A DNA stretch of 64,000 nt from an uncultured Gammaproteobacteria bacterium. Lineage in GTDB: Bacteria > Patescibacteriota > Microgenomatia > CAZETR01 > Amesbacteraceae. The stretch is from the NCBI GenBank assembly GCA_964356225.1, contig CAYHGA010000001.1, positions 104,220-168,219 on the forward strand, given 5' to 3'. Position numbers and translations under genes: made by a program. Positions 35,318 through 57,620 of the stretch are shown here, one piece after another (positions within the stretch are counted from its first letter, which is position 1; each line of letters begins with the position of its first letter). The notes beneath the pieces are model-generated. The model worked only from the letters and a program-made list of their open reading frames with translations, was not told the origin of the DNA and did not search any database.

Positions 35318-35796
35318 TATACATTTGGCGCGGAGGTAAATTCGGTGGGCTCAAATTCATAGTTGATAGGCGCCTCTAAAGGCAGACCGCTAAAGGGTTT
35401 AACCATGACAGACATTTGATACTTTGTGTTGTAGATCCAATCTGACTTGGGGATAACGTGTAAAAGGGAGCGGTCTTTAGCGTCGATTTCGACAGAGATT
35501 TTAGTTTTCGGTTGAATATCGACCATGGCTGTACCGATCCTTAGTTCTTGGTTGAAAACGAAGGTAATAGCTGTATTGCGGAAAGCGACAGGCGATTTAC
35601 CCGGGAGAGGAAAGACGCTAACCAGTTCGAGTTTAATTGGCGCGGGGGTGGGGAAAACATTAACATTCTCAGATGGTTTTTTGGATTTAGATAACAAATA
35701 AACCATTGAAACGACAGAGATTGCCAGCAATACCAAAAACATACGGGCCCCCCTGTTTTTTAATAGATCGGACATTGCTTCTTGTTTTACTGGCAT
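35314..35796 (-). CDS. small membrane-anchored beta-rich protein (first gene of the T4SS-like cluster)
   Basis: N-terminal TM helix (MFLVLLAISVVSMVYLL) and a beta-rich ectodomain. ATGA-type coupling to the upstream giant gene. Confidence 0.35.
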   Translation of the reverse strand: MPVKQEAMSDLLKNRGARMFLVLLAISVVSMVYLLSKSKKPSENVNVFPTPAPIKLELVSVFPLPGKSPVAFRNTAITFVFNQELRIGTAMVDIQPKTKISVEIDAKDRSLLHVIPKSDWIYNTKYQMSVMVKPFSGLPLEAPINYEFEPTEFTSAPNVY

Positions 35797-38045
35797 AAGT
35801 AATTTTCAGGTTTTACAAAAAGGCCACTAACCTGCATTTCTAAGTGCAGATGGGTATTGCCTCCTTGATTATATAATTTTCCAACGGGCTTGCCAGAGTC
35901 GAGTGATTTCGTAAAATCAACTGTTGTTTGATCCATGTGCGTAAACGTTATGACATGTTTTCCAGTCTGGTCCCGATATAAGTAACTGAATCCGGAGCCT
36001 GGATTTGGAAACGACGTAGTGGGGTTCCAGGTGGTTGGGTTGCCATCAACTGACGGCGCGTAAACCCAAGCGTTGTCTCCTGGAAAAAGATCGGCGGCGT
36101 ATCCATAAAAAGGACACTTGGAAGAGGGGTGGGTTTGCTGACATTTGTTTCCGGTATTGCTGTTGGGAGCCTGACAGCCGATTAAAGTTTGCGGCAGGGG
36201 ATATGTGCAATCTTGGTGGGCGACATTGTTCCAATAATAGTTTGATCCGTGGCCGCCAGCGATGTCGTTTTCGTGCGAAGAATCGTATGATTTTTGTTTA
36301 TATACGCCATTCAAAATGGGACAAGAAATATTACGGGGGGCGTCTTGGGGTGGTTGGTTGTTTGTGGAAAACGGATTAGGGGGGACGACGAGGGCGGAGG
36401 AGTTGATGATGAAGAGAATTAGGGCGATGCCGATGGGAATACTTATGATAATGATGATTATGGGGGCGGCGATTTCGGTGGCCACAAGTCCGACCATGGC
36501 GGTGGAAGCGGTGGCAATGGCGTTACCGGTCTTGGTAAGAGCCCCGGCAACTCCGCCGGATCCTTGAATAGCAGCGCCGGCGACAGCCCCCGTAAGTCCG
36601 AGTGCGGAAGTGCCAATAAGACCCAGCCCGCCGATGACTCCACCGACTATTCCCGCCAGTCCCAGGAAAATAGCCGGAAGATATTCTTTGATGAGGATCT
36701 TGGCTTTCGACCAGAGAGTTTTGACGGCTTCGATGGCAAGGGGAATAAGAAGGGAAAGACCTAGTGTTTCCGGAGCCAAAGCGGCTCCGGCGGCGGCTTC
36801 GGCCCCGACAGCGGCAGCTTCGGTGGCAGCGGCGGTGGCGGCTTTGGTTCCTAAGGAAGTGAGAACTTTTTTACCGACTTCGGAGGCGGCGAATTTTTCC
36901 CAGGCGGCAGAGGCCACTTTGTCTTGAATTTTGTTTTTGCCGAAACCGACGAGACAATTGAACCAACCAGATTGATCTGGGGATAGAGGTTGGCCGGGGA
37001 CATGGTCCGATTGAGATGAATAAAACTGGAGCGGGCGGGTGAAATAAACAGTGCGGTAGTTGAGATATTCAATTACTTGATTTGAAAAGTAGATTTGAAC
37101 TCCGGAAACGCGCTGGGAATGCTGCGGGGGAGAGTCTGAGAGCCGGTGAGGTGTGAAAGAGGCAATGGTATTGATAAGGGGGACGAAGTGGGTGGCAAAT
37201 TGGGAAGCGAGGGACAGGGCCTGCGGGGTGGGATAACCGGCCTTGAGAAATTGGTTGTGAAGAGACAGGGTTAGGGGGGGGGTGGTAGGGGAGGGAGCTT
37301 GAATTTGGGAAATGCTGGATGCAGCAGTTTGGGGAATATTGAGAGGTTTACCAATGGCTTCTGAAGCTAGAGTTAGACGCTCAAGGAGTTGTTGGATTTG
37401 GGGGACCGTAACCTGGGGGGTGGCGATTTTGAGAACAGTGACGGCGGCGGCGGCCGGCTGGGGAAGAACTTGAATGGTTTGAAGATAAATATTTTCAATG
37501 ACGGGGTGGGAAACTTCGGGAATAAGGGGAGCTAAAATTTCAGGGAGAACAATGCTGGCAAGTTTTTCGATGGTGCCGACGGGTTCAAGAATAAGGCTGG
37601 GGGCAATATCGGGGATAGATTTTTCCAGCCCGGGAACATTTTGGGAAAGTTTTTTTAGAAGATCCAGGTGTTTTTGATAACTTTCCGCCCCAATTTTTTT
37701 TATGGCTTCGTCTTGACGGGCAAGACGCTCCTGATCTCTTTTTTCTTCTAAAAGCCTGACGTTTTCCTGGAGGTTGTCTATGGCCATGTTACTGGTGGCG
37801 TCGAGGTTGAGGGTACGAATTACATCAATGAGGGAAACAATACGGTCAAGCAGGTCTGGGTTGTTTTTTATTTGGTTGATGATGTTTTCGGCCGCGGCCC
37901 CCTTTTTTTGACGAATGGTGCTTTCGTATGCAGTCCACAGGCTGGTTTCGGTTTGGGCCAGAAACTGATAATCGTGGGGATGGAGACCGACGAGGCGAAG
38001 GGTTTCTTGAAGAACGGCGGCTTGTTTTTGAGCGAGATCGGCCAT
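35787..38045 (-). CDS. large membrane protein with C-terminal M23-like peptidase domain (T4SS-associated cell-wall hydrolase candidate)
   Basis: Helical/coiled-coil N-terminal half. Central Gly/Ala-rich multi-TM block. The C-terminus carries HENDIAGGHG and GNTHLHLEMQ motifs, which are LytM-like HxxxD and HxH. Confidence 0.45.
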   Translation of the reverse strand: MADLAQKQAAVLQETLRLVGLHPHDYQFLAQTETSLWTAYESTIRQKKGAAAENIINQIKNNPDLLDRIVSLIDVIRTLNLDATSNMAIDNLQENVRLLEEKRDQERLARQDEAIKKIGAESYQKHLDLLKKLSQNVPGLEKSIPDIAPSLILEPVGTIEKLASIVLPEILAPLIPEVSHPVIENIYLQTIQVLPQPAAAAVTVLKIATPQVTVPQIQQLLERLTLASEAIGKPLNIPQTAASSISQIQAPSPTTPPLTLSLHNQFLKAGYPTPQALSLASQFATHFVPLINTIASFTPHRLSDSPPQHSQRVSGVQIYFSNQVIEYLNYRTVYFTRPLQFYSSQSDHVPGQPLSPDQSGWFNCLVGFGKNKIQDKVASAAWEKFAASEVGKKVLTSLGTKAATAAATEAAAVGAEAAAGAALAPETLGLSLLIPLAIEAVKTLWSKAKILIKEYLPAIFLGLAGIVGGVIGGLGLIGTSALGLTGAVAGAAIQGSGGVAGALTKTGNAIATASTAMVGLVATEIAAPIIIIIISIPIGIALILFIINSSALVVPPNPFSTNNQPPQDAPRNISCPILNGVYKQKSYDSSHENDIAGGHGSNYYWNNVAHQDCTYPLPQTLIGCQAPNSNTGNKCQQTHPSSKCPFYGYAADLFPGDNAWVYAPSVDGNPTTWNPTTSFPNPGSGFSYLYRDQTGKHVITFTHMDQTTVDFTKSLDSGKPVGKLYNQGGNTHLHLEMQVSGLFVKPENYLCQ

Positions 38046-38048: not shown

Positions 38049-40424
38049 CTAGGGGGTGGTTTCAGGAACTAGACGAACTTTCTCTTCTTTTTGAGCACTG
38101 AGTATTTCTGAAGGCTTGGTGGTAATGAGCTTGTGTTCGTCGGGAGAGGCGACGACGCGGATGGCGACGTGATTATTGCCGGCAAAAAACAGACCTTCGC
38201 CCACCTCGCTACTTAATAGTAAATGCTTCTCCCCCTCGGAAAGATAGAAGACCTGGGCGACTTTGTCGATGGCGGCGGGGGATTGTTTCATGAGAACTTG
38301 GATACTGGAATTGGTGACGATGGCCTTGCCGTAATCCGTGCTCAAGAAATCTTCCACGTCCTGGGTAATAGTGGTCAGCCCCAGGAAATACTTGCGGGCG
38401 CGTTTAGCAATGCCGTATAAAAAGGCGGCGGAGTCGGGGGAGCGCATCAGATACCAGGCTTCATCGACAATTAGCAGTCTCTTTTTTAAATCCCGGCGCA
38501 TTTTGGTCCAAATATAATCCAAAATAATAAAAATGGCGATGGGCTTGAGGGAGTCTTCCAAATCGCGGACGGAAAAAACAGTGAAAGGATTTTTGAGATT
38601 GACGTTGCTGGGCTGGTCGATGATGCCGCGGAAGCTGCCTTTGACGAATTTTTCAATGCGGTCGGCCAGGGCCCCGGCCTGGGGTTCTTCCATACCCACC
38701 AGGGCTTTGTAGAGGTCCTCCATGAGGGGTGGAGGGAGTTTTTGGGTTTGGGGATCTGGGGTGATGCCTTTCATTTTGTAGGTGGCAACCAGGGCCCGGT
38801 CCAAAATAGCTTCTTCGGCGGGAGACAAGACGCCCATAATGACCTTAAACAGGGAATGCAGAGAGAGAATTTTTAAGTTTAGTTCGTTTTCATCGGAAGT
38901 GTCGGTGAGGGCAGAGAGGTCGAAGGGGTTGAGGCGGCAGGGAGAATTGAAAGAAAAGTTGATATATTCGCCGCCGACGGCGTCGGAAAGAGTTTTGTAT
39001 TCGTTTTCAGGGTCGATGATAATAATTTCGGTGCCAAACATGAGGGAGCGGAGGATTTCCAGCTTGACCAGGTAGCTTTTTCCGGCGCCAGCTTTGGCAA
39101 AGACAACGGTGTTGGCGTTTTCTAAACTGAACCTGTCAAAAATTACTAAACTGCCGTTGTGCTCGTTGAGTCCATACAGCACGCCTTCGTTGCTGGTGAG
39201 TTCAGAGGAGGTAAAAGGAAAAGTAGTAGCCAGAGAAGTGGTGTCCATGTTGCGGGTGACCATGAGGTGGTCAATACAGGCAGGGAGAGTGGTTTTGAAA
39301 CCGTCGGCCTGTTGGAGAAGGGCGGGGGCGGTGGTGATAAGCAAAGAACCTAAGGTGCTGGAAACCTGTTTGGTGACCTGATTAAGTTCGCTCTCGGATT
39401 TGGCAGGAATGGTGACATACAACCCAAACTGAAAGAAGCGTTCGGCACCTTTGACCAATTGGTCTTGGAGGGAGAGGGCGTCTTCGAGTTTGGCTTGGGT
39501 GCTGGGGTCGACCACCCGGCCACGCTGCAAGTCGGTGGAGATTTCGGCCTCCATTTCGGCAATTTTCCTGCGCAGATCATCGAGAGTGGATTTGCTTTCT
39601 ACGGGGTAGACGAACATAGAGATATTTAAAGAGTGGTCAAAATTAATGAGGGGAGCCAGCCAGTTGGCGGTGACAAAACGGGGATAGCCGGCCACAAAAA
39701 GGGAGCGGAAATACCAGTCGTCGATTTTGAGGGTGTTGAAATCAACTGTAATTACTTGAGGAGCGATGGAGGAGGCGGCTGTGACTTTGGTTTCAACCTG
39801 GGAGCGGTGATAGGAGCTAAAGAAAAACTGAATAAGTTCGGGGGAAGTAAGCTGGCGGGCGCGGAGGCCGATGCGAGCCAACAATCTGGCAAGATGATCA
39901 CGCTTAGGAGAGAGAGCCAGGGCGGCGCGGGCCAGGATTTCGGCTTGGGGTTTGGGCGGAGTTGGGGACTTTTTATTGATAGAAATCAGGGATTTGAAAT
40001 TAGAGGAGATACCAAGCTCCAGAGAAGAGAAGGGAATGGCCACGTAGAACTTTTTGTCCAGGACGTTGCCCTGGCGGACGACGGTTTTAATAAAGTCGCG
40101 ATATTTGGCAAGCTGGTCATGTAAAAGAGAGTTGGCAGTTTTTCCCAGCTGCAGATCCAGGAGGGAAAGATAATCAGAAATATCCTTTTGTTTGGAGGAA
40201 ACGACGATTTGAATGGAAAAAGTGAGAGAGTTAAGAAGCTGGGCGTAGGCATAGATGGTGGCGTCCTGCTCTTTTTCGGACAATAAGCCGAAGTTAAGGG
40301 CGGAAACTTCTAACACTAAGCAAGCGGAGCCGTCTTTGAGAACGACTAAATCTTGAGCGATATCCTGGACGTCAAGATGGTCTTGGGTTGTGGATTTGAT
40401 AATGTGATTAGTTAGTTGGTTCAT
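38049..40424 (-). CDS. VirB4/TrbE/CagE-family type IV secretion ATPase
   Basis: 791 aa. Walker A VVFAKAGAGKSYLV and Walker B LLIVDEAWYLM. The overall VirB4 architecture has a long N-terminal domain. Confidence 0.8.
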   Translation of the reverse strand: MNQLTNHIIKSTTQDHLDVQDIAQDLVVLKDGSACLVLEVSALNFGLLSEKEQDATIYAYAQLLNSLTFSIQIVVSSKQKDISDYLSLLDLQLGKTANSLLHDQLAKYRDFIKTVVRQGNVLDKKFYVAIPFSSLELGISSNFKSLISINKKSPTPPKPQAEILARAALALSPKRDHLARLLARIGLRARQLTSPELIQFFFSSYHRSQVETKVTAASSIAPQVITVDFNTLKIDDWYFRSLFVAGYPRFVTANWLAPLINFDHSLNISMFVYPVESKSTLDDLRRKIAEMEAEISTDLQRGRVVDPSTQAKLEDALSLQDQLVKGAERFFQFGLYVTIPAKSESELNQVTKQVSSTLGSLLITTAPALLQQADGFKTTLPACIDHLMVTRNMDTTSLATTFPFTSSELTSNEGVLYGLNEHNGSLVIFDRFSLENANTVVFAKAGAGKSYLVKLEILRSLMFGTEIIIIDPENEYKTLSDAVGGEYINFSFNSPCRLNPFDLSALTDTSDENELNLKILSLHSLFKVIMGVLSPAEEAILDRALVATYKMKGITPDPQTQKLPPPLMEDLYKALVGMEEPQAGALADRIEKFVKGSFRGIIDQPSNVNLKNPFTVFSVRDLEDSLKPIAIFIILDYIWTKMRRDLKKRLLIVDEAWYLMRSPDSAAFLYGIAKRARKYFLGLTTITQDVEDFLSTDYGKAIVTNSSIQVLMKQSPAAIDKVAQVFYLSEGEKHLLLSSEVGEGLFFAGNNHVAIRVVASPDEHKLITTKPSEILSAQKEEKVRLVPETTP

Positions 40425-40792: not shown

Positions 40793-41623
40793 CTATGAAC
40801 TAACTAACCGTGAACTTTCAAGTTGGGCTTTGATGACTATGGGGGAAATAATTTTATTTTCGGCTTGGAGAGTGAGGGGGGAAAATTGTAGGCCCTCCTT
40901 CTCGGCTATTAGAGTGTAGGTTCCTTGGGGTAGTGGGGTAGCAGTCATAAACTGGCCGAGTTTGTTGGAGCGGAGAGCCCGGACAGGAACACCTGCGGCA
41001 TCGGATAATTCTAAAATTACTCCTTCTAAGTACGATCCGGCGGAATCAAGAACTTGGCCAGTGAGAAGGTTGGGGTAGTCGGGAGAGGGAATTGAGTTAT
41101 TGGTTACTTGGTTACTTGGTTCATGGTTCATAGCGGCCGGAGGTTTGATGACTGGTGTTTGGTATTCAGTATTCAATATTCGGTGTTCGGTTGAGGGTTG
41201 AATGGCCGAGAAGGCCAGGTTGGGGTGGGAGAAGATTTGGGAGAAACGAGCAAAAAGCTGGCCTTCGATTACGTCAAGAGTAGTTTTTTTAGTTATTTGG
41301 TTAGTTGGTTCATGGTTCATGGTAGCCGGGGGTTGGGAAGTTTCGGACCAGTGAAATTCTGTGGGAGAGTAGATGGCTTTGATAAAAGCCATGATCCATT
41401 GGGAAAAAGGGCGGCCGGAGACGGGAACAAAAGCCAACATGATACCCATTAAAACCGACAGGGCCATGACGGGCCATTTAATGAAAAAAGGGAGGGGAAG
41501 GCGGTATAAAACCGCAGCAACGGCAATGCCGCCGGCTAATTGGAAAAATTGCTTGAGGGTCATGTCACCCACGAGGTGAAATTCGTATGAAGAAATATTT
41601 TGTGGTACAGGGTGCTGATCCAT
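40793..41623 (-). CDS. membrane protein with C-terminal carboxypeptidase-regulatory-like beta domain
   Basis: Two or three N-terminal TM helices. Two in-frame ATGAACCATGAACC-type micro-repeat patches (MNHEPTNQ, MNHEPSNQ). The C-terminal Ig-like GQVLDSAGSYLEGVILELSDAAGVPV region. Confidence 0.35.
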   Translation of the reverse strand: MDQHPVPQNISSYEFHLVGDMTLKQFFQLAGGIAVAAVLYRLPLPFFIKWPVMALSVLMGIMLAFVPVSGRPFSQWIMAFIKAIYSPTEFHWSETSQPPATMNHEPTNQITKKTTLDVIEGQLFARFSQIFSHPNLAFSAIQPSTEHRILNTEYQTPVIKPPAAMNHEPSNQVTNNSIPSPDYPNLLTGQVLDSAGSYLEGVILELSDAAGVPVRALRSNKLGQFMTATPLPQGTYTLIAEKEGLQFSPLTLQAENKIISPIVIKAQLESSRLVSS

Positions 41624-42004: not shown

Positions 42005-42031
42005 TTTTGTAGCCGATGGTATAATTTTATT

Positions 42032-45420: not shown

Positions 45421-47211
45421 TTATCCCCTTCTTATTTTTCCGCTTAGACTGTCCACAAAGTCTGAATAGCCTTTGCCGAGTCTGCCGGCAGGGATAAACA
45501 CGCCAGGTTTGGATGGGTCTGGAATCATTAACCCAGAGCGAATACCTATTTGGGTACCTACATATGATGCTCCAGTACCGGCGCCCTCTCTGAATGGCAT
45601 GGTGGCTTCTCCGAATGCTGCCCCATACTTAAAGGCGGGAATCTTGAGGGCGTCACGGATCATATCTGCAATCTTGGGGGTGAGAGAAAAAATTACGAAT
45701 CCCGTGCCTAGAGATATTAAAACACTAATTTCTCCTGAACCGCCCATATAGGGGAGAGATAGATTTATTCCACCTAAGTCCCAAAAAGACTTAAGCCCAA
45801 GCATATTGTTTAAAAAAATATTTCCTGACAAGATATTTTGGAGCAGGAACATAATGGGTACGACCGCAAAAACAGAAGCGTTGGCGATTAAATTTCGGAG
45901 CCATGGCCCGAATCCCTGTTGGCCAGGAACGAGATCAAGCATGATTTGGAGGGGGGCTATAACTATTTGAAGGACGATCATTACATAGGCCTTGATAAGC
46001 ATCCAGAGTATTTTCCAGAGAATGATCAAGAAATATATAAAAATTATTGCAATGATGACGGCCCCCAACAATAGACTGCCCCCGGCCGTGAAACCAGCTA
46101 GGGCTATGGAAAATATACCTACTATTAACAAGGAAAAGAACAGGGTGGGAAGGGTTTGAACTGCTGCATAGAGAGCAAAGGGAATGTTGGTAGTAATGTT
46201 TATAGTTCCAGGGAGATTGGTTGTCAGTTGATTTAGACCAAGCATGCCAATAAAGGCCACAATAATCACATAAACAAGGTCAATGACAAAGCCGGCGATG
46301 GCGAAGGAGAAAGTGACTAAAAGCATAGTGATGATGAGCTTGGGGATCATGGTTTGGAGAGAGACGACGGTTTGGGGATTGATTTTGACCCGGAACATAA
46401 TTAGGAAACCAGAGGCGACTAGAAGGATAACCATGACCAGATAGGCCATGTTGCGGGAAGCGGTCCAGAGAGCGCGGACGGCGGAGCCGGAATTGCCGCC
46501 CAAACCACTGAAGCCGTATCCACCGGACTGGGCATAGGCGGGCTGGACGCCAGTGCCAAGGTCAAATAGGCGGGTGGCCATATATTTGATTTCGCCGATA
46601 CCAGAGGCGGGAGGGTTAGAGTAGAGAGCAGAAATGCCGCCGGCGAAAAGACCGGCGGGGCCGAGCTTGGCATAATCTTGGATGGTGGGGAGTTGGCCAG
46701 AGACAGCATCCTTGATAACTTTTTCAATGGCAGTAATAAAATCGAAAAAATCTGTAGCCGTATGAATATTGGCAGCGGGGTTTAACATAGTGGCGATGCT
46801 ATTGATGATCCAGTTAATTTGAGCGTAGGTGTAACGTTCGCCAAAGATATCCGATTCGTTGGTAGGATCTAAAACTTTTTTGGAAAATTGAGAGGGGTTT
46901 TGACTATACCATGGTCCGTCGGTCTGGTTCTCAAAAAGTTTAGAAATTGCCTGGCAAGTTTGTAATGACATCCCTGGGGGAAGAACGGCACAAAAATCGG
47001 CGGAGGCGGGAGGTGGAGCGGTGGAACAGTCGGAAGCTGGAGAACAGCAAGCAAGGGGATTGCTCGTGCCACACGTGACACCGCCGGAAATTGAACAAGT
47101 TCCCCCCGTGACATTAATCGTTCCACAGGCGGCAAAAGTGGGGGTAGCGGATGAGAGCAGGAGAGTAAAAGAGTAGAAGAGTGTAAGTAAAAACAGGGCA
47201 GATTTTTTCAT
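45421..47211 (-). CDS. TrbL/VirB6-like polytopic membrane protein with Cys-rich secreted N-terminal module
   Basis: Signal peptide, then CGT...C..SGG..CG..NPLACCSP..DCS, then at least 6 TM helices with Gly-rich loops. Confidence 0.45.
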   Translation of the reverse strand: MKKSALFLLTLFYSFTLLLSSATPTFAACGTINVTGGTCSISGGVTCGTSNPLACCSPASDCSTAPPPASADFCAVLPPGMSLQTCQAISKLFENQTDGPWYSQNPSQFSKKVLDPTNESDIFGERYTYAQINWIINSIATMLNPAANIHTATDFFDFITAIEKVIKDAVSGQLPTIQDYAKLGPAGLFAGGISALYSNPPASGIGEIKYMATRLFDLGTGVQPAYAQSGGYGFSGLGGNSGSAVRALWTASRNMAYLVMVILLVASGFLIMFRVKINPQTVVSLQTMIPKLIITMLLVTFSFAIAGFVIDLVYVIIVAFIGMLGLNQLTTNLPGTINITTNIPFALYAAVQTLPTLFFSLLIVGIFSIALAGFTAGGSLLLGAVIIAIIFIYFLIILWKILWMLIKAYVMIVLQIVIAPLQIMLDLVPGQQGFGPWLRNLIANASVFAVVPIMFLLQNILSGNIFLNNMLGLKSFWDLGGINLSLPYMGGSGEISVLISLGTGFVIFSLTPKIADMIRDALKIPAFKYGAAFGEATMPFREGAGTGASYVGTQIGIRSGLMIPDPSKPGVFIPAGRLGKGYSDFVDSLSGKIRRG

Positions 47212-47242: not shown

Positions 47243-49162
47243 TTATTGGGCCAGACTGGCGGATTTGATGATGAGCTGGAGGGGGGCGGTGTTTTTTTTG
47301 ACAACCGAGCTGTATACCTGATCACCCAATCCTTCCACTTGTTGATCGTTGGCAGGATCACGGAAGACGGACATGGTATATTCGCCGGCGGTGTCTTCCA
47401 GAGATGAGAAAGGAATGTTTTGAAATAACTGTTTCCACCAATCACCATTTTTAACATAAACGGGGGTGCCCTTGTTGGGATCGAAATCGTCTAGACGTTT
47501 TTTGAAGACGGCAGGGTCGGAACAGGGTTTGGCAGACGTACCCAGAGCGTCATTGCAGCCTACAATTGTGTTGTGAACGTCCTGTTGTCTGGATTCGATG
47601 ACGACGTTTTTGAGAGTGGTGGCCAAGTCGAAAGGGAGAAGTTTGCGCAGGGGGCCGGAATAGTTGACTACGCGGCTGATAGCGGCGGGGTTATTGGAAT
47701 CAATGGGCAGCTGGTCGCCGATTTGGGGAGTGCCGGTGAGGTACCAGGACAAATATTCGTTGACTTTTTGGGCGTCGGTGAGGGTGGTGTCCTGGGTGTT
47801 ACTTAAAACGCCTAAATTGGCGTGAGAGAGATCGACGGTAACGTCAAAAGCTGACGAGCGCCAGCAGGTGACGGTTCCACCATTTTGGAGCATGTTTTTG
47901 AAGTCTCTTTTTTCTTGGTCCGATGTTCCGAATTCGCTGGGATAACAAACGGTATGAGCAAAACCCTTTGTTGTTCTCCTTTCGTATAACCCGTTTTTGC
48001 CATAGGGATCAAAGCGTTCAATTGCCGATGGCGTCAGCGATGTGCCACAAGCAAAAGTATTAAATTTCTTTTCGGAAGTAAGCGGAGCTTCGGGAACGGA
48101 GCGGGAGATTAGGGGATCGCAAGGAGAGCCGGGATATGGGCGCAGAGGATGATATTCAGGGTCGGCAGGATTACCACTACAGGGATAATATTTGAGGGGG
48201 TTAAACCCTTCTTCTAATGGGCCTTTTTTCTGGGGGAGAGGAGGACCAGTGGGAATTTCATCAAACTTATAACCAACTTCACCAAGATAAAAGGGCTTAC
48301 CAAGCTGATTAGATTGATCTTGGGCTTGGGACGCAAGGGACTTTTCCGAGGGATTATAGTAGTGAGCAGAAGTAAGGTCAATGGACGAAGAATTATTACT
48401 GTTTTTAAAGTCACCATTGCCTGGGCTGTCGCCTAAAGTAGTATTTTCGTTCGATTTTTGGCCGATACTGACTTTGGCATCGGAATCGATACGTTTTATT
48501 TGTTGGGCAACATCGTTAGCCCAAAGTTTGTAAGGTCCACGACAAGCGTCAATACCACTACAATGCGGCTCGTTGGCGAGTTCATAGCCAAAGAGCGACG
48601 GATTTCCTTTCAATTTACTAACGACGGATTTTATATATGGAAGATAAGCCGTTTTATAGTCGGAAAGATACCAAGATGTGGGATCGGATCTGATATCACC
48701 AGGGAGAATATCCCCACTACTGTTACTGTAATCTGCGAGAACGACGATGGTTTTGACACCATATTTTTCGGCAGAGTCCAATACTAATTTTGGGTCTCCC
48801 CGGTCGGGACTGCCCCAAACGCGGACAACGGAAACTCCACACTCCTTTGATAAATAAGAAAATGTGTCGTCTGTTTGAGTAGGATGATTGGCCAAACTAT
48901 GAATGTTAACACCGATGAATTTGCCGGAATATTTATCGGCGGCTTGTTTGAGAATGCCACAAACAGGACTTCCTTTGTAAAATGAATAGGGATCGTTTTC
49001 GAAATACTTGTCTTTTGGGCCGGAGTATTGCCAGACAAGAAAACCGGCAGCACCGGAGCCAAACCACTGGTCGAGGTCAGATTGTAAATCGTCGAGTGGA
49101 CCGGCCAAAACGGCGGGAGCCGTAATTAAAATTATGCACAAAAATAGTAAAAGTTTTTTCAT
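47243..49162 (-). CDS. secreted glycoside hydrolase family 5 enzyme
   Basis: Signal peptide MKKLLLFLCIILITAPAVLA. GH5 acid/base motif ELANEPHC and nucleotide-side nucleophile motif YLGEVGY. A long extra C-terminal domain follows. Confidence 0.55.
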   Translation of the reverse strand: MKKLLLFLCIILITAPAVLAGPLDDLQSDLDQWFGSGAAGFLVWQYSGPKDKYFENDPYSFYKGSPVCGILKQAADKYSGKFIGVNIHSLANHPTQTDDTFSYLSKECGVSVVRVWGSPDRGDPKLVLDSAEKYGVKTIVVLADYSNSSGDILPGDIRSDPTSWYLSDYKTAYLPYIKSVVSKLKGNPSLFGYELANEPHCSGIDACRGPYKLWANDVAQQIKRIDSDAKVSIGQKSNENTTLGDSPGNGDFKNSNNSSSIDLTSAHYYNPSEKSLASQAQDQSNQLGKPFYLGEVGYKFDEIPTGPPLPQKKGPLEEGFNPLKYYPCSGNPADPEYHPLRPYPGSPCDPLISRSVPEAPLTSEKKFNTFACGTSLTPSAIERFDPYGKNGLYERRTTKGFAHTVCYPSEFGTSDQEKRDFKNMLQNGGTVTCWRSSAFDVTVDLSHANLGVLSNTQDTTLTDAQKVNEYLSWYLTGTPQIGDQLPIDSNNPAAISRVVNYSGPLRKLLPFDLATTLKNVVIESRQQDVHNTIVGCNDALGTSAKPCSDPAVFKKRLDDFDPNKGTPVYVKNGDWWKQLFQNIPFSSLEDTAGEYTMSVFRDPANDQQVEGLGDQVYSSVVKKNTAPLQLIIKSASLAQ

Positions 49163-51330
49163 GGTGAAACGACACATGAGGCGATATTCAAAACGCTTTG
49201 TTGATAACAAGTGGAAGGATTGGCGACACAAGATGGCCGGGGTGGATATTTGGGGTCGGGATGTTTGGGATCTTCACAATAACCAAGGTATTGTCTGGCG
49301 GCTGTAACAATGTCTGAATTATTCCAATAGCAAGAGGTAGAAGGACCTTGGTTAGTATTGAGCACATAACCAATACATTCAGGAATAGAGTAGCTGGCGG
49401 CTCCACCACGTTCTTGACCAATTTTTTTAGCTGCTGCAAAAGTGGAGTCTAATAGATTACAAATATTGGGGGTACGACCATCGGACACTCCTGCTTCAAC
49501 GACAGCATTGGAATACGAGGACCACGTGCTAGGCAAGAATTGCCAGGGACCTTTAGCGCCGGAACTGCTAATATTACTACCATCACAATTAGTTACTTGA
49601 CAGTTTGGGCCACTGACAGCAAGAACTTTGGATTCATCCCAACCCCATGAAGGGTTAAGGCCTCCCTCATTATAAAATACGCCAACTAGAACAGAGACGG
49701 GAACTTTATAGAATGAGGCAGCTGATTCAAAAATATTTTTCATTGATAATGAAGGAAAAGATATCGAGCAAGTTTGGCATGTAGGGTCGATAATTGGCAG
49801 GGTGGGGAGTGTTGGAGTGCAGGCATTTTGATTGTTGGGAGGAGTAGTAGAAAAACCCAGGGGCCGGAGGGTTTTTTGCAGGCCCTGCAGGAAATATTCA
49901 TACAGACTGCCTAGATGGGGAATATAGATAGTGGGCGTGGCAGAGCCATTTCCGGCCTGAATATTTACTCTGCTACCTTCCTGGTTTACTCCGGTTGCCT
50001 CAGCTAAAAAACTAGCCTGGGAAGGGATTTCCTTAAACTCTTTGGGTAAATTCTTGGGAAAGATTCTTTTTAAGACCGATTGTGATCCTACTACCAGCGA
50101 ATCGTAAATATATTCTATAAGGGGAGTTTTGGTATACACCACGGCCCGGCCCTTGGTAGGATAATCGTTACCAGCGCGGGTGGCGCATTTGTAATAAACA
50201 TCCTCAGTTCCGATTAAGTTAGGGACGACCGTGACTTGCGGAGTCAAAGAATAATAACCATTCCCCTCATATTCCGAACAACATTTGGTGCCGGACCGCC
50301 GTTCTGTCTCGGATATATTGTAATTGTCTTCTTTACATCCGTCCGGGTGGGGAGCGGTTTCATAGGTATATTTTTGGGTATAAGTCAGACTGGATACAAT
50401 TGTGGGGCCCAGGAGATCGTCTCCGGGGTTGGCGCGGGTATCGGCGATACTGCAAAAACCGGAGGCTTTGTAAGGAAGATTGGGGTCGTTGAAAGAATAG
50501 AGAGGATCGGGAGCGGGGGCATTTACTTTCAAGGAAGAATTATTTTTGTCAGACACGTATTGGGTGTCGTCGTCCAGCCCTTGATGAAGCTGAATGCGGG
50601 TGGTAACGGCGGCGGGATTATCAAGAGAAGCTGATTGGGGAGCGGGGGGCTCGGCGTTTTTATTGAATGAGCCGGGAGCGGGATTGAAAATAGACTGGAG
50701 GAGAGTGGACAGGGCGGAGATATTTCTGAGCTGAGGAAACCAGAGGCGGGATTCGCCGGCGCCACTCCTGGCGATATTGGTGCAGAAGCCATATGGAGGG
50801 GTAACTGAAGGAAGAGAGGGAGAGCAATCATTGGGTTTGGGGGGAATTCCTGTTTGACTGCAAGAGTTTTTTGAACCACAACAAAAGACATTGTCGGAAC
50901 AAACTTTGACAGTGTTTATACCAGGAGAACCAAAAGTTAGTCCGTTAAAGGTGAACGGGCCGGAAGTCTGGGTTTCGATTTGGCCTTTGATGGGGGGGGT
51001 GGGGAGGGAGCTGGCCCCTTGGGCAAAATTGGCACCGTAACAGACCCAAAAATTTTGATTGCCGTCGATACCATACGCGCACCAGGGAATAATTTCGGGG
51101 GAAGTGCCGCAAATAGGGGATTTGAGAGTGTCGTAGGCCAAAGTTTCTTCTTTGGTGTCGCAGTACATTTGGATTCCCTGAAACTGGGCCGGAAATGGGG
51201 ATGTGCCGGTTTTTTGACAACGGCAGAGATCTTTTTGAGGATCATTACACCAGCAAGCCGCCCCCGCCGGAGGCGGGGCGGCAGAGCCCAGAAGGAAGAG
51301 AAAAGTGCTCAGGGCAAGAAATTTCTTCAC
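49159..51330 (-). CDS. secreted Cys-rich protein with C-terminal lytic transglycosylase (SLT-like) domain
   Basis: Signal peptide. N-terminal CWCNDPQKDLCRCQ. The C-terminal FYNEGGLNPS...SSGAKGPWQFLPSTW resembles the SLT E...S...GxMQ..P.TW motifs. Confidence 0.45.
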   Translation of the reverse strand: MKKFLALSTFLFLLGSAAPPPAGAACWCNDPQKDLCRCQKTGTSPFPAQFQGIQMYCDTKEETLAYDTLKSPICGTSPEIIPWCAYGIDGNQNFWVCYGANFAQGASSLPTPPIKGQIETQTSGPFTFNGLTFGSPGINTVKVCSDNVFCCGSKNSCSQTGIPPKPNDCSPSLPSVTPPYGFCTNIARSGAGESRLWFPQLRNISALSTLLQSIFNPAPGSFNKNAEPPAPQSASLDNPAAVTTRIQLHQGLDDDTQYVSDKNNSSLKVNAPAPDPLYSFNDPNLPYKASGFCSIADTRANPGDDLLGPTIVSSLTYTQKYTYETAPHPDGCKEDNYNISETERRSGTKCCSEYEGNGYYSLTPQVTVVPNLIGTEDVYYKCATRAGNDYPTKGRAVVYTKTPLIEYIYDSLVVGSQSVLKRIFPKNLPKEFKEIPSQASFLAEATGVNQEGSRVNIQAGNGSATPTIYIPHLGSLYEYFLQGLQKTLRPLGFSTTPPNNQNACTPTLPTLPIIDPTCQTCSISFPSLSMKNIFESAASFYKVPVSVLVGVFYNEGGLNPSWGWDESKVLAVSGPNCQVTNCDGSNISSSGAKGPWQFLPSTWSSYSNAVVEAGVSDGRTPNICNLLDSTFAAAKKIGQERGGAASYSIPECIGYVLNTNQGPSTSCYWNNSDIVTAARQYLGYCEDPKHPDPKYPPRPSCVANPSTCYQQSVLNIASCVVSP

Positions 51331-51339: not shown

Positions 51340-51627
51340 CTAGCAGACGGGGCCGGGGAGGCAGATGGAGAACATGGAGAAATTCAGTCCAAGGAAATTC
51401 CCCAGTAAGTTTAAGATAATCCAGGCAGATAAAACCAAGACCAGGCCACCGATGGCGTAGGTGAGAGTTTTTTGAGCTTTGGCGGCGCCTTCTTTGTCTC
51501 CACCGGCAGTTAAAAACCCAAAACCGCCCACAATCAACATTACTAAGACCGCAATTCCGGCTAAGGTCAAAGCACCGGAGACCACGGATGAAAAGACGGT
51601 TTCGAGATTTTGAATAGTGGCGGGCAT
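51340..51627 (-). CDS. pilin-like small 2-TM protein (VirB2/TrbC-like candidate), paralog 8 (promoter-distal; the array is minus-strand)
   Basis: 95 aa, two TM helices. The family motif is AGGDKEGAAKAQKTLTYAIGGLVLVLSAWII. Confidence 0.5.
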   Translation of the reverse strand: MPATIQNLETVFSSVVSGALTLAGIAVLVMLIVGGFGFLTAGGDKEGAAKAQKTLTYAIGGLVLVLSAWIILNLLGNFLGLNFSMFSICLPGPVC

Positions 51628-51704
51628 GTTTTTATTTTAACACTTCTCATCAAAACCAAATTGTCCCGCTTGCGGCGGGACAATTTAACGTCAACCCTAA
51701 GCAA

Positions 51705-52118
51705 CTATTGGGTAGTAATTGAGGGAATTACGAGGTTTAGAATACTGATGCCGAATATGCTATCGATAAGGAACGCAATGGCGTAGGTAGAAAAGACAAT
51801 CGCAAGGCCCAATAGGGCGGCCGTAATACGCTTGCGAGCTTTTTCGGTCCCTTCTTTGTCGCCGCCGGCCATAATCCATTGGACTCCTCCTATTAAGAGA
51901 AAGAAGAAGGCGACTAAACCTGCGCCCATTAGCACAAGGTTAATGCTGAGGCGAAGGATGTTTTGGGCATTAAACGTTCCCTCAGTGCCGATTGTCTGCC
52001 CTATTCCAGACTTAGGGATTAAGTCTATATTTTCTGCAAGGGCTGTGGTTGGTGATACGGTGAGCATTGTTGCTAGAGCAGAACCGTATTTGATGGCGTT
52101 TTTAATTTTGTTTGTCAA
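51705..52118 (-). CDS. pilin-like small 2-TM protein, paralog 7
   Basis: 137 aa. Contains MAGGDKEGTEKARKRITAALLGLAIVFSTYAI. Confidence 0.5.
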   Translation of the reverse strand: MTNKIKNAIKYGSALATMLTVSPTTALAENIDLIPKSGIGQTIGTEGTFNAQNILRLSINLVLMGAGLVAFFFLLIGGVQWIMAGGDKEGTEKARKRITAALLGLAIVFSTYAIAFLIDSIFGISILNLVIPSITTQ

Positions 52119-52133
52119 AGATGCTCACCTCCT

Positions 52134-52472
52134 TTACTGGATGACAGGAATTGTAAATTTAGTAATAGAAACACCAAATAATGTTTCAACTAAGTAGATT
52201 ATAGCAAAGATGGAGAAGACAATTGCAAGACCTATTAAAGCAGCGGTGAGACGTTTGGAGGCGGATTGGGTGCGTTCTTTGTCTCCTCCGGCGGTGATAT
52301 ATTCTATTCCGCCCCAGAGGAGCATAAAAAAGAAAATAATGCCGGCGGCTCCCAAAGCTAGAGTAATAAAATTGGTGAGAAAGAGCTGGAGGATGTCGAT
52401 GCCGGAACTATAACCAACGCTAGTATTGATTGCGGGGTTTTTAATGACGAAACCTTGGGCAAGTATTCTCAT
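52134..52472 (-). CDS. pilin-like small 2-TM protein, paralog 6
   Basis: 112 aa. Contains TAGGDKERTQSASKRLTAALIGLAIVFSIFAI. Confidence 0.5.
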   Translation of the reverse strand: MRILAQGFVIKNPAINTSVGYSSGIDILQLFLTNFITLALGAAGIIFFFMLLWGGIEYITAGGDKERTQSASKRLTAALIGLAIVFSIFAIIYLVETLFGVSITKFTIPVIQ

Positions 52473-52909
52473 CTTCGTGGAGTGCCACCGCCTCCAGTAC
52501 TACCGGGAATGTTACAAGTAAAGGTTGTGGTTCCGATGGTATTGGAAAAAAGGTCTCCAAATGGACAAAGGATGTTTATTCCGAAGATTAATCCTATGAT
52601 TCCAATTAGGGCGTAGGAAAATACGACTACAAACAGTCCTAAAATAGCATTCACGATTCTTTTTTGGGCGTTTTGCAGGGCTTGTTTTTCTCCTCCACCC
52701 GCTAACCACTGAAAGGCTCCGGCAAATATTTGAATGATAAACCAGACTCCGGCCGCAACAGTGAGAACACCGATTCCCGTGGAAAGAGTGGAGACAAAAA
52801 GGGCAAAGGGCTCTGTTCCTCCTTTGGTCAGGGTCTTGGTAAAATCTCCCAGGGGCCCCACGCCCTCAAAAGTTCCTAAAGGAGCGTCGGCTAAGAATTT
52901 CATGGGCAT
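52469..52909 (-). CDS. pilin-like small 2-TM protein, paralog 5
   Basis: 146 aa. Contains LAGGGEKQALQNAQKRIVNAILGLFVVVFSYAL. Confidence 0.5.
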   Translation of the reverse strand: MPMKFLADAPLGTFEGVGPLGDFTKTLTKGGTEPFALFVSTLSTGIGVLTVAAGVWFIIQIFAGAFQWLAGGGEKQALQNAQKRIVNAILGLFVVVFSYALIGIIGLIFGINILCPFGDLFSNTIGTTTFTCNIPGSTGGGGTPRR

Positions 52910-53256
52910 GATCCGGGCCCGTAAATAACGGGGGAGATAATGGCGGTGGCATCGCCAAAAATTAAATAGCCAAAGATTCCTGCAAGAACAAATGAGCCGG
53001 CGACAAAAGTCAGACCGAGGAGAGATTGGGTGAACTTGCCAAAAGCCTTACCCATGGCTTTGGCATCGTCACCGGCGGACATAAATCCGTAACCGGCGGC
53101 AATGAAATTCCAAAAAGCATATAGGCCGGCCAGGACGATGACCGTTTTAAGCAGGCCATTGCTTAGAGTAATCAATCCAGATCCACATTCACTACCTTTT
53201 AGGGGTGAATTTAATGTTGCAAACGGGTCATAAATTTTACCGAATGGGGAAATCAT
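52900..53256 (-). CDS. pilin-like small 2-TM protein, paralog 4
   Basis: 118 aa. Contains MSAGDDAKAMGKAFGKFTQSLLGLTFVAGSFVL. Confidence 0.5.
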   Translation of the reverse strand: MISPFGKIYDPFATLNSPLKGSECGSGLITLSNGLLKTVIVLAGLYAFWNFIAAGYGFMSAGDDAKAMGKAFGKFTQSLLGLTFVAGSFVLAGIFGYLIFGDATAIISPVIYGPGSCP

Positions 53257-53597
53257 AGTCTTATGTTAAAAAAGTCGATGCCGGTAATGACCCCGACTGC
53301 TTGGAGTATAAAATAAGCGGAGATGACAAGCAAGAATCCGATAACGGAAAATGTGATAGTATTTTTTGCTTGAGCTGCGGCTTTGGCGTCATCTCTGCCG
53401 GCTGACGAAATCATGGAAAATCCGGCGCCAAGCAGTAAAAACAAAAATATGACTCCGGCGCCAATGAGAGCGTTGGGGAGAAGGGAAGTGATAAGAGTAC
53501 CGAGATTGGCGTTGGTCCCGCCCGCAATGCCTGCGGCTTGAGGGGAATTTGTAAAAAACTGTTCATTAATGTCTACTTGGGATAATAATTTGGTCAT
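53253..53597 (-). CDS. pilin-like small 2-TM protein, paralog 3
   Basis: 114 aa. Contains SSAGRDDAKAAAQAKNTITFSVIGFLLVISAYFI. Confidence 0.5.
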   Translation of the reverse strand: MTKLLSQVDINEQFFTNSPQAAGIAGGTNANLGTLITSLLPNALIGAGVIFLFLLLGAGFSMISSAGRDDAKAAAQAKNTITFSVIGFLLVISAYFILQAVGVITGIDFFNIRL

Positions 53598-53899
53598 AAG
53601 ATTTCGATGCCAAAGATGGTTTGTATAACCTGAATTATAAAGTAAGCGGAAATGACAACTAATAAACCAATAAGAGCATTGACAAGTTCTTTAGAGGCGC
53701 TCTGGATTTTGTTTTGATCACCGGCGTTGGTGAGGTAGGTGTATCCGGCGGAAATAAGACGAACGAAGAAAAATAAACCGGAGAGGGCGATGGCAAAAGT
53801 AAGAATGCGGGCTACATAATATCCAAGAAACACATCTGGGGTAAGAAGATTTAGGGGACCAGGTTGGTTAATGCCAGTGATTTGGGCGAGTTGTTTCAT
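53594..53899 (-). CDS. pilin-like small 2-TM protein, paralog 2
   Basis: 101 aa. Contains TNAGDQNKIQSASKELVNALIGLLVVISAYFI. Confidence 0.5.
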   Translation of the reverse strand: MKQLAQITGINQPGPLNLLTPDVFLGYYVARILTFAIALSGLFFFVRLISAGYTYLTNAGDQNKIQSASKELVNALIGLLVVISAYFIIQVIQTIFGIEIL

Positions 53900-54639
53900 A
53901 GGTTGAGACCAGGATTTCCTACGAAGCCGGGTAAATTAAGGATTTTTACTCCAATAAAGTTTAACAGAACGAGGCTTAATGCAATAATGATGAGGCCGGC
54001 GAGGGCGGACATGAGCAGTTCGCGGGCGGCTTGAACCTTTTTCGGGTCGCCACTGGCGGTGGTCATTTGAAAGCCGGCTAAGACGATCATCAAAAAGGCA
54101 ATACCTCCGCCAACCCCTACTCCCCAACCTAAGAGTTGGGAAACCAGCTGTTTGGGATCTCCGGCCATCAAACAACCAATGGCAGTAGAGACTCCAAGAT
54201 TATCTGTGCCACAAAGAGCGCTTGAGCTGGCTGCGGGGGGATTGATGAGAGAAACACACACTCCGCTGCTGCAATTTCCGAAACTGCAGGTGTTTCCGGG
54301 ACAACAAGTTTGTCCTACATTACCGCAAGCTGCACAGTGAATTGTATTGTCGCAGTTCAGGTTGTTGAAGCAGCGAAAACCGCCAGTATATGAACCGCAA
54401 CAAGGATCTCCGACTTTATCACAAGTAGTGGGGGGGGTAGTGGGGGCTGGGATTTTACAATGGATTGTACTATCGCACTCGCTTGCTGGTGGATTGCAAT
54501 ACAAAATACTAGTTATAGAACCACAACAGGCATCGCCTACAGCGCTGCAGTTGGTGGCGAGGGAGGGGGACGGCCGGAGGCCGGAATAAACACCAATAAG
54601 TACCAAGGCCGAAATAAATATTAATAATTTACCGTTCAC
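53896..54639 (-). CDS. pilin-like protein with N-terminal triple Cys-rich module, paralog 1
   Basis: 247 aa with a signal peptide. It has three repeats of GDxCCGS...C.N...C..TIHC, then the family 2-TM core (TASGDPKKVQAARELLMSALAGLIIIALSL). Confidence 0.5.
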   Translation of the reverse strand: MNGKLLIFISALVLIGVYSGLRPSPSLATNCSAVGDACCGSITSILYCNPPASECDSTIHCKIPAPTTPPTTCDKVGDPCCGSYTGGFRCFNNLNCDNTIHCAACGNVGQTCCPGNTCSFGNCSSGVCVSLINPPAASSSALCGTDNLGVSTAIGCLMAGDPKQLVSQLLGWGVGVGGGIAFLMIVLAGFQMTTASGDPKKVQAARELLMSALAGLIIIALSLVLLNFIGVKILNLPGFVGNPGLNL

Positions 54640-55865: not shown

Positions 55866-57620
55866 GTGAAGAAGTTCATAGTTATTAGTTCATGGTTCAT
55901 GGTAATTTTGGTGGCGGCGACGGAGGTAAAAGCGGACGAGTGTGATAATCCGGGGAGTTTGACGGATTCAGTGCAAATTTCTCAATGTATAGGGAAATTT
56001 AGCGGGATTGCGGATGCAATTTCCAGAGCTAATTCAACAAATCAGAGTGAATTAAATTCGCTCAATGCGCAAATCGCAAAGCTCAAAGCGCAAATAACCA
56101 ATATGAATCTGCAGATTCAGAAATTGCAGGCAGATGTGTTTGAGAGGCAGGTAAAGATTGGGGTGAGGGAGACACTATTGGCGGCGCGGGTAAAGCAGGA
56201 TTATTTGCGTAAACGGGACCAGACGGTGCTGATGACGTTGTTTGCAGCGGATACTGCCCAAGAACTGTTTGCCGATCTGGCTTATAGAGAAAAGTTGGCT
56301 AGGGACGATCGGGAGGTCATTTCGTCTGTTTTGGCCGAAATTACAACGCTCAATGCTCAAAGCTCAATGCTCAATAGCCAAAAGAGTAATTTAGATGCGT
56401 TAAAGAAACGGGTGGATGATCAAGCCACGTGGCTGGCGGGGGAGGTGGCCAAGGCAAACGCTTATGTATCTGATTTATCGGGGAAAATTGCCTCGCTGAC
56501 GGCGCGACAAAACGAATTATTGGCAGCCAAGACGGGAACATATCAAACATCTGTGGGAGATGTGCCTTTGGCTGACGATGCCAACGCCCGACCCACTTTT
56601 GATCCTGGGTTTAGGCCTGCTTTTGCTGCTTTTTCCTTTGGGGTGCCCCATTTTAAAGGTATGAGCCAGTATGGGGCGTTTGGGAGAGCTAAAAACGGCC
56701 AGAGTGCGGAGACTATTTTGCACGCTTATTACGGAGATGTGGAGATTAAGAAAGATTATGACGCAGGTAGGCTGATAAGCGTTGCCGGCTATGGGCGGAT
56801 GGATATTGAAACGTATGTAAAAAGAATTTACGAAATGCCCAGTTCCTGGGGAGATGAGGGAGGAATTGAGGCTTTGAAAGCACAATCCGTAGCGGCGAGA
56901 TCGTACGCTCTAGCGTGGACCAGGGAGGGAACGGGAGGAGCAATTTGTACAACCGAAGCTTGTCAGGTTTATAAAAATGCCAACAAGGGAGGAAAATGGG
57001 AGGAAGCGGTTAACGCAACCAGGGGATGGGTACTGATGAAAGGCGGAAAGATAATTAGTGCCTGGTATGCTTCAACTTCGGGAGGGTATCAGGAATCTTA
57101 TAACGCATTGGCATATTTGCAAGACGGAAGCAGCTATAGTACGCCGGGTTTTTGGGATACTACTTCCGACTGGACCAGGTGGGCGGATGGGGCGTGGGAG
57201 GTTAAAGGAGGCAGCCCCTGGTTTTATAAAGGCTGGTATAAAGGTCGATCGGGAACCGCCTGTGGAAGAAGTCATCCTTGGTTGTCTGAAAACGAGTTTG
57301 CAGATATTGTGAATGCGGCGTTGGTATATAGCAATGGTGGGGATGCCAGTGGAATTTTTCCTACCGATGGATGTTTGGGCCAAACGGGATGGGATAAAGC
57401 CAGAATGGCTGTGGAGGCCGATAAATATGGAGGTCGGGTGAGTAGTGTGAGTAGTGTGCGGGTGGACCACGGCAACAATGGGGTGACCAACAAAGTAATT
57501 CTGTCTACCAATAGAGGAAACGTAGAAATTTCGGGAACGAATTTTTACAAAGTATTTAATTTGCGGGCGCCGGGGGCAATTCATCTGACCAGTGGATTAT
57601 TTAATGTGGAGAAGAAGTGA
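55866..57620 (+). CDS. SpoIID/LytB domain protein with N-terminal coiled coil
   Basis: Signal anchor and a long coiled coil. The C-terminal AQSVAARSYALAWTREGTGGAICTTEACQVYK matches the SpoIID motifs (AQAVAARTYAl ... CdTthCQvY). Confidence 0.6.
   Translation: MKKFIVISSWFMVILVAATEVKADECDNPGSLTDSVQISQCIGKFSGIADAISRANSTNQSELNSLNAQIAKLKAQITNMNLQIQKLQADVFERQVKIGVRETLLAARVKQDYLRKRDQTVLMTLFAADTAQELFADLAYREKLARDDREVISSVLAEITTLNAQSSMLNSQKSNLDALKKRVDDQATWLAGEVAKANAYVSDLSGKIASLTARQNELLAAKTGTYQTSVGDVPLADDANARPTFDPGFRPAFAAFSFGVPHFKGMSQYGAFGRAKNGQSAETILHAYYGDVEIKKDYDAGRLISVAGYGRMDIETYVKRIYEMPSSWGDEGGIEALKAQSVAARSYALAWTREGTGGAICTTEACQVYKNANKGGKWEEAVNATRGWVLMKGGKIISAWYASTSGGYQESYNALAYLQDGSSYSTPGFWDTTSDWTRWADGAWEVKGGSPWFYKGWYKGRSGTACGRSHPWLSENEFADIVNAALVYSNGGDASGIFPTDGCLGQTGWDKARMAVEADKYGGRVSSVSSVRVDHGNNGVTNKVILSTNRGNVEISGTNFYKVFNLRAPGAIHLTSGLFNVEKK

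Follow-up and report, generated by a model that had tools for sequence, protein, structure and literature searches.

Sequence evidence for a circularly permuted GH5 head in the hydrolase slot of a Patescibacteria type IV secretion locus

Background

Why would the gene cluster of a type IV secretion system (T4SS) encode a glycoside hydrolase of family 5 (GH5)? The question is raised by a stretch of 64,000 nucleotides (contig CAYHGA010000001.1, positions 104,220 to 168,219; hereafter, the window), in which the gene at 47243..49162 on the minus strand (hereafter, the target) lies inside a T4SS cluster and encodes a secreted protein of 639 aa, composed of a permuted GH5 head and a conserved C-terminal module. 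The original prediction, which was made from the letters of the window, described the product as a secreted GH5 enzyme and left two answers to the question: the apparatus has to breach a polysaccharide layer other than peptidoglycan, or the gene is a passenger. Here, we describe the relationship of the head to beta-mannanases, the apparent circular permutation of its barrel, the module that carries it, and the genomic position that this module defines.

To our knowledge, no T4SS other than that of Patescibacteria has been shown to be essential for the growth of its owner. A role in mediating the epibiotic lifestyle is ascribed to this T4SS, and its VirB1-type enzymes are mostly undetected. The system is monoderm-conjugation-like and piliated, and epibiotic growth depends on it; in Southlakia, it has neither relaxase nor coupling proteins (PMC10633639; PMC12857230).

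Results

The mechanical open reading frame (ORF) of the target extends over 47243..49231 from a TTG codon; the ATG at 49162 gives the 639-aa product, with the N-terminus MKKLLLFLCIILITAPAVLA|G, a typical Sec signal. The signal peptide (aa 1-20, MKKLLLFLCIILITAPAVLA; 49103..49162, minus strand) was assigned by sequence reading and a hydropathy scan, which bears out the export signal claimed originally. The exported protein contains 12 cysteines, and an identical copy of it is present on contigs from Hainich groundwater.

The Pfam model of GH5 (PF00150) matched the target with 33.8 bits (cut-off, 23.5; E = 3.4e-8) and the isolated GH5 head with 36.4 bits. When the PDB was searched with phmmer, the best matches of the target were GH5 beta-mannanases (1qno, E = 1e-14; 3wfl, 7e-13; 3ziz, 1e-12), and a profile of 16 homologues strengthened such matches to E = 6e-20 (3ziz) and 5e-18. 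All PDB matches better than 1e-4 were mannanases, and cellulases appeared at 1e-4 or weaker. A weak precomputed match to PF26410 (GH5_mannosidase) was also present. The closest relatives with a solved structure are beta-mannanases of fungi, plants, and bacteria, probably members of CAZy subfamily GH5_7.

Strands 1-7 of the GH5 barrel were assigned to aa 81-300 (48263..48922, minus strand) from Pfam, PDB, and homologue alignments; R114 and H267/Y269 lie within this piece. The ELANEP motif (N197, E198) aligned with ELGNEP of 1qno and with ELANEP of 3ziz and 3wfl, and GKPFYLGEVGY aligned with GKPCLLEEYGY of 3ziz, in such a way that E295 fell on the second Glu, which is the nucleophile. The two catalytic Glu residues are therefore found in equivalent positions on alignment, as the original prediction had required: E198 (NEP, aa 197-199; nt 48569-48571, minus strand) is the predicted acid/base, and E295 (nt 48278-48280, minus strand) is the predicted nucleophile. 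R114, N197, E198, H267, Y269, and W44 were invariant across the 16 homologues (35-82% identity), E295 was kept in every homologue whose sequence reaches that column, and W44 was kept in 15/15 aligned permuted homologues. The strand-3 His of GH5 was not placed; at that spot, the family of the target has a conserved D144-Y145-x-N147. On these alignments, the head is predicted to be a catalytically intact, retaining beta-glycanase of the GH5 family (clan GH-A), closest to the beta-mannanases.

The assignment to GH5 thus stood as regards the family profile and both catalytic Glu residues, but not as regards the standard GH5 topology. The target does not have the canonical strand order of the GH5 barrel; its (beta/alpha)8 barrel appears to be circularly permuted, with the strand-8/helix-8 piece placed first and the end of the domain directly after the strand-7 nucleophile. 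The displaced piece (aa 22-80, 'GFLVWQYSG..ENDPYSFY', including the conserved W44; 48923..49099, minus strand) stands before strand 1. The clearest comparison was with the homologue P0029, which has the normal strand order. Residues 81-298 of the target matched residues 47-271 of P0029 (E = 1e-55), and residues 26-85 matched residues 294-355 (E = 4e-12), a segment that lies past the nucleophile of P0029; the coordinates of local HMMs reproduced this swapped order. P0029 was in turn colinear with 3ziz (104-339 with 113-346) through the nucleophile and strand 8 ('FWQW...DGFTIYY'), with its 294-355 segment on 3ziz 306-346, and the N-terminal piece of the target was therefore assigned as the strand-8/helix-8 element.

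When target residues 22-78 were moved behind residue 301, the resulting de-permuted sequence gave a single alignment to 3ziz 106-343, as compared with 106-292 for the native sequence (60.1 vs 50.5 bits). The Pfam score was nearly unchanged (36.5 vs 36.4 bits); thus, Pfam alone does not reveal the permutation. The 59-aa N-terminal peptide alone had no match in the PDB. In the family alignment, every permuted-type head (GH5p) has a conserved GxGFLVWQYSG...ENDPYSFY segment directly after the signal peptide, and all of these heads end within a few residues of the nucleophile. Because the catalytic face of a (beta/alpha)8 barrel is formed by the C-terminal strand ends, and because this domain stops after strand 7, the chain would be handed over to the module on the catalytic face, which suggests that the module is adjacent to the active-site cleft. 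The literature searched contained no report of a permuted GH5.

BLAST comparison of the first 41 homologues divided the protein near residue 305 into two parts, the GH5 head and the C-terminal 330 aa, which occur independently of each other. The latter form a conserved module (aa 309-639; 47246..48238, minus strand), which carries the motifs HPLRPYPGxPCD, NLGILGNTQ..LTDAQKVNEYLSWYLTG, SGPLRKLLP, and PFSSLEDTAGE; at the level of the family, the motifs are NL(G/P)ILGNTQ..LTDAQKVNEYLSWYL(T/N)G, HNY, and PFSS(L/M)EDTxGE, together with conserved cysteines. The module had no match in Pfam or NCBIfam and no fold match, and the profile search of the PDB was empty. Its AlphaFold model had a pLDDT of 42 with the 16-sequence alignment and a pLDDT of 72 (pTM, 0.53) with 102 sequences; the latter has a confident core and is mostly helical. 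The carbohydrate-binding module (CBM) proposed earlier for the C-terminus did not find support, as there was no match to a CBM family and the model is mostly helical, though the moderate quality of this model leaves room for doubt. In an HMM scan of 1.84 billion cluster representatives (50% identity), 514 proteins with the module were obtained at E<=1e-3, of which 445 at E<=1e-10; the module was absent from the other large ORFs of the window. The C-terminal 330 residues are a Patescibacteria-specific module.

The genome scan, in which each species was represented by one genome, yielded 22 Patescibacteria loci with this GH5. Eighteen of them were in a T4SS context, 16 between the pilin array and the VirB6-like gene (some contigs being truncated) and 2 adjoining virB4, so that the gene is conserved at the same position in related genomes, which the earlier proposal had named as a check. 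The strand order was permuted in 18 loci and canonical in 3 (L008, which was found via the contig of P0029, L024, and L030). The homologues carry the labels Woesebacteria, Shapirobacteria, Amesbacteria, and WWE3, and the loci L015, L016, and L018 bear a provisional Saccharibacteria label. Loci L010, L019-L021, L023-L028, L030, and L031 come from TPA 'binchicken'/SRP-derived metagenome-assembled genomes (MAGs) entitled 'uncultured Pseudomonadales' or 'Gammaproteobacteria'; on T4SS loci of the Patescibacteria type, these titles are probably wrong. In L016, L017, L018, and L030, the GH5 head forms the N-terminal part of giant proteins (1300-1730 aa), and its order is canonical in L030.

Between its pilin array and its VirB6-like gene, the T4SS locus has a 'hydrolase slot', which the module defines and whose content varies. 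This content was GH5p-SLT in L001/L002, GH5p in L003, an 850-aa protein and GH5p-module in L004, a 663-aa protein and SGNH-module in L007, a canonical GH5 in L008, and module-tail in L009. The tail spans about 400-530 aa, and its end matched Pfam SLT_3 above the cut-off in P0093, P0110, and P0113. Classification of 231 collected proteins with local HMMs gave the following architectures: module-tail (123), head-2-module (32), module only, often as fragments (23), GH5p without module (12), SGNH/GDSL esterase-module (10), GH5p-module (8), head-2-module-tail (8), GH5p-module-tail (2), SGNH-GH5p-module-tail (1), and module-GH5p-tail (1). GH5p was fused to SLT in P0016 and P0025. GH5p, module, and tail were joined in this order in a single chain in L013 (a complete Woesebacteria chromosome, CP066693) and L031; P0143, P0189, P0144, and P0167 are also single-chain proteins with these three parts.

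Head-2, known here from proteins outside the window, is a domain of about 300 aa with GPNEPD and LTExG motifs that stands in front of the module. Its halves are swapped between P0008/P0009/P0012/P0022/P0028 and P0034/P0037/P0039/P0048/P0049, and the two chain orders may reflect a second barrel permutation that arose independently in this slot. P0064 consists of SGNH, head-2, and module. A relationship of head-2 to GH5p was considered and rejected (hhalign probability against the GH5p profile, ~10%), and a comparison of head-2 with the PDB found nothing.

The ATG of the target and the stop codon of the upstream SLT-like gene overlap as ATGA (49159-49162), and the gap from the stop of the target to the start of the downstream VirB6-like gene is 31 nt; therefore, the VirB6-like, target, and SLT-like genes and eight pilin genes make up one packed block on the minus strand. 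A scan for promoters and terminators was uninformative, as the counts equalled those from shuffled sequence. The location between a TrbL-like and an SLT gene given in the original prediction was confirmed, 'TrbL-like' by position and topology and SLT by remote evidence.

The upstream partner (49159..51330, minus strand) is a Cys-rich secreted protein of 723 aa, of which residues ~191-723 correspond to the tail, that is, a middle region and a lysozyme/SLT_3-like domain. Residues 191-723 were 39% identical to residues 236-759 of P0074 (E = 1e-111). E555 (YNEGG motif) was invariant in 22 relatives, relatives matched PF18896 (SLT_3) above the cut-off, and the profile of the family gave sub-threshold but consistent matches (E = 0.2-0.6) to the catalytic-Glu motif of MltC/EmtA. 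The protein itself had no direct match in Pfam, PDB, or NCBIfam, its pairwise comparison with the SLT of P0016 was not significant, and the module was not detectable in it; its lysozyme/SLT-like character is thus a prediction from remote, family-level evidence. The target and this partner are adjacent, translationally coupled genes, and the halves that are joined in most relatives are split here, with X-tail encoded by gene 1 and GH5p-module by gene 2.

On the other side of the target, a polytopic membrane protein of 596 aa (45421..47211, minus strand) combines a signal peptide and an ectodomain of about 230 aa with at least six transmembrane (TM) segments. It is orthologous across the loci (E = 7e-34) and syntenic in all of them; neither the protein nor its 7-sequence profile had a match in Pfam, NCBIfam, or PDB, and we label it VirB6/TrbL-like, as a putative assignment, by position and topology. 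VirB6 was reported to be scarce in Microgenomatia (PMC12102498), with which this unmatched protein agrees; a conserved, divergent candidate is present here.

In the direction of the window coordinates, the cluster has genes for a Big_5 protein and an M23-like membrane protein, followed by VirB4, PrgI, two 23S-IVP genes, and an 827-aa gene that lies on the opposite strand; the VirB6-like gene and the target come next, before the SLT-like gene and the eight PF18895 pilin genes. VirB4 (38049..40424, minus strand) is an ATPase of the CD1110 family (NF045971; 389 bits, cut-off 325), and PrgI (VirB3-like) is encoded at 40793..41623 on the minus strand. Directly downstream of virB4, the 752-aa membrane protein (35787..38045, minus strand) has three hydrophobic segments and, at its C-terminus, a weak match to M23 peptidases (E = 0.003), and is reminiscent of the essential Southlakia peptidase that was reported downstream of virB4. 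The VirB2-like pilin genes (51340..54639, minus strand) are tandem, partly overlapping paralogues, one of which encodes 247 aa with a long N-terminal extension; the gene at 52900-53256 has no Pfam match yet fits the array. A SpoIID-domain protein (55866..57620, plus strand) is divergent from the pilin operon and was found at the same position in L004, L007, and L009. Since dnaA (32694-34055) and dnaN (34211-35317) are next to these genes, the cluster is a chromosomal, origin-proximal Patescibacteria T4SS.

Several other genes and features were recorded. Between the SpoIID gene and the pilins, a toxin-antitoxin-like pair at 54650-55796 on the minus strand consists of a nucleotidyltransferase (DUF6036/AbiEii-like) and a helix-turn-helix (HTH) protein (Crp-like); its equivalent in L004 is an HTH_Crp_2 gene followed by a PIN-domain gene. 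Genes of the 23S rRNA intervening-sequence type, which encode four-helix bundles (PF05635; weak bAvd-like match), flank PrgI at 40421-40783 and 41657-42118 on the minus strand, and genes of the same type occur at equivalent places in related loci, e.g., 11812-12183 and 17736-18053 in L004. The 827-aa protein (42927-45410, plus strand), convergent to the VirB6-like gene, has no signal peptide, TM segment, or family match. BLAST detects an orthologue at the corresponding place in L005, L006, and L031, and opposite-strand genes of 680-906 aa occupy this position in L001, L003, L004, L008, and L009; the protein may be an unrecognised cytoplasmic T4SS component. The GC skew of the plus strand was positive in every 2-kb bin of the window (0.09 to 0.43), without a sign change at dnaA/dnaN (32694-35317), though most T4SS genes are on the minus strand.

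Discussion

The explanation to which we lean, with moderate confidence, is that the GH5 and SLT-like proteins form a wall-opening unit of the T4SS, in which the GH5 head would remove a beta-linked glycan other than peptidoglycan and the module would tether this head. Both proteins would act jointly outside the membrane and fill the role of VirB1/PrgK. The SLT-like protein, as a lytic transglycosylase, would cut peptidoglycan, and the GH5 head would strip a secondary wall polymer, an S-layer glycan, or a capsule-type glycan that blocks the pilus or channel, in the envelope of the cell itself or in that of its host. The module would tether the head to a partner protein or to the wall. A non-peptidoglycan target of the GH5 head is plausible because SLT-like, SpoIID, and M23-like enzymes for peptidoglycan are already present in the locus. 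Alternative heads in the slot include an esterase and a further glycosidase-like domain; GH5 most likely takes away a non-peptidoglycan or modifying component of an envelope.

Some points weigh against this explanation. The GH5p variant is present in only about one-tenth of the slots, and is therefore an option rather than a core part of the system. In 4 of the 22 loci (L016, L017, L018, L030), no T4SS genes were found within 9 kb, even by HMM. The identity to mannanases in the core (about 30%) is too low for the substrate specificity to be read from it. That the module has no known fold is a provisional result, given the moderate confidence of its model (pLDDT, 72). As judged from alignments, the N-terminal piece would close the barrel; as judged from gene fusions and genomic neighbourhood, the module would bind to the tail protein, to the pilins, or to VirB6.

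Other explanations account for part of these data. That the head is catalytically dead and serves only for adhesion, as a lectin-like glycan-binding domain, is hardly credible: no specific evidence favours it, beyond the point that permutation or divergence could in principle go with loss of activity, and R114, N197, E198, H267, Y269, E295, and W44 are invariant or nearly so among the 16 homologues. An ordinary secreted mannanase or glucanase that scavenges environmental polysaccharide and sits in the operon by chance would fit the Sec signal, the mannanase-like sequence, and the four relatives outside T4SS loci. Such a nutritional enzyme would not be expected in a slot that is conserved in 18/22 loci over genomes labelled Woesebacteria, Shapirobacteria, and WWE3, with a start codon overlapping the upstream stop, nor would its head be expected to recur in covalent fusions with the module and with SLT or the lysozyme-like tail; these observations contradict the passenger alternative mentioned at the outset, which we regard as improbable. 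We know of no GH5 member that cleaves peptidoglycan, and this counts against the proposal that the GH5-like barrel substitutes for VirB1 by cutting the peptidoglycan strand of its own wall, or chitin-like GlcNAc polymers. The closest relatives of the head are mannanases, and a further muramidase is not needed in an operon that already includes an SLT_3-like protein whose catalytic Glu is invariant, as well as SpoIID and M23-like genes. Such a substitution, which we judge unlikely, would be in line with the fusion of the GH5 head to SLT in P0016 and P0025 and with the report that, in Patescibacteria, homologues of VirB1 are seldom detected close to virB4, for which a takeover by other glycosidases was suggested (PMC12102498).

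A sharper version of the wall-opening explanation places the target glycan in the host: exchangeable heads on the constant module would set to which host the epibiont attaches or from which it feeds. Different heads do occur on the constant module, and in shuffled order; the enzyme is exported and rich in cysteine; and the T4SS on which epibiotic growth depends was proposed to act on the host (PMC10633639; PMC12857230). The Sec signal, however, makes the protein no obvious T4SS substrate, and classical enzymes of the VirB1/PrgK type act on the wall of the producer, so that a host-directed specificity factor seems to us rather doubtful. With the same reserve, one could picture the slot as a modular 'drill head', in which a constant docking module and a lysozyme-like tail carry swappable, glycan- or ester-cleaving heads matched to the envelope polymers of the host and thereby set the host range, and in which the permutations bring the active-site face against the module. 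Though we give this idea little weight, it would count the permuted GH5, the second permuted barrel-like head, and SGNH as exchangeable heads.

Returning to the wall-opening unit, we note that a slot with GH5, SGNH, and lysozyme-like domains on a shared module offers clonable candidates for the envelope-opening step, and that its heads are a possible handle on the envelope polymers attacked and hence on the identity of the host. The module family, with 514 representatives and no Pfam model, merits a family definition. The GH5 variant of the T4SS hydrolase slot, the circular permutation of GH5, and the orphan module family are new here. No paper on GH5 in a Patescibacteria T4SS was found in the literature searched; the words 'cellulase' and 'GH5' are absent from the text of PMC12102498, and 'glycos' is absent from that of PMC10633639.

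The locus shares the pilin array, PrgI/VirB3, VirB4, and the VirB6-like protein with the T4SS of Southlakia epibionticum (SEML1_0006-0019) and with the loci of Quinonero-Coronel et al. 2025 (PMC10633639; PMC12102498). The origin-proximal position and the peptidase downstream of virB4 are also common to them; the published descriptions list peptidase and lysozyme homologues. Like PrgK of pCF10, TraG of pIP501, and TcpG, which are VirB1-like, the target is an exported, modular protein that is encoded in an MPF_FATA-like T4SS locus, is associated with an SLT/lysozyme-like domain, and presumably opens the wall for the channel (PMC12102498). As with T4SS-associated wall hydrolases in general, it is both encoded and conserved in a T4SS cluster. 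The three known proteins combine SLT, CHAP, and LytM, all of which are peptidoglycan enzymes, whereas the accessory heads of the slot are GH5, SGNH, or unclassified domains on a module without known counterpart, and the functions can be split over two genes; the target itself consists of GH5 and module only, without a lysozyme-like/SLT, CHAP, or LytM domain.

Among enzymes, the best sequence matches (1e-14 to 6e-20) were the GH5 endo-beta-1,4-mannanases, such as Man5A of Podospora anserina (3ziz) and Man5A of Trichoderma reesei (1qno). The target shares with them the signature of clan GH-A, namely, the strand-2 Arg, the Asn-Glu acid/base, His-x-Tyr, the Glu nucleophile, and the strand-8 Trp, and differs from them in the permuted barrel, the low core identity, the unrelated 330-aa module, and the T4SS operon. 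Natural circular permutation of TIM-barrel glycosidases is known from the GH70 glucansucrases as compared with GH13. There, as is predicted here, the start of the chain is shifted to a different strand of the (beta/alpha)8 catalytic barrel; the clan and the break point are different. Unlike in the GH70/GH13 case, close relatives of the target show both chain orders in the same genomic slot, and the survival of both orders provides a clean natural experiment in barrel permutation.

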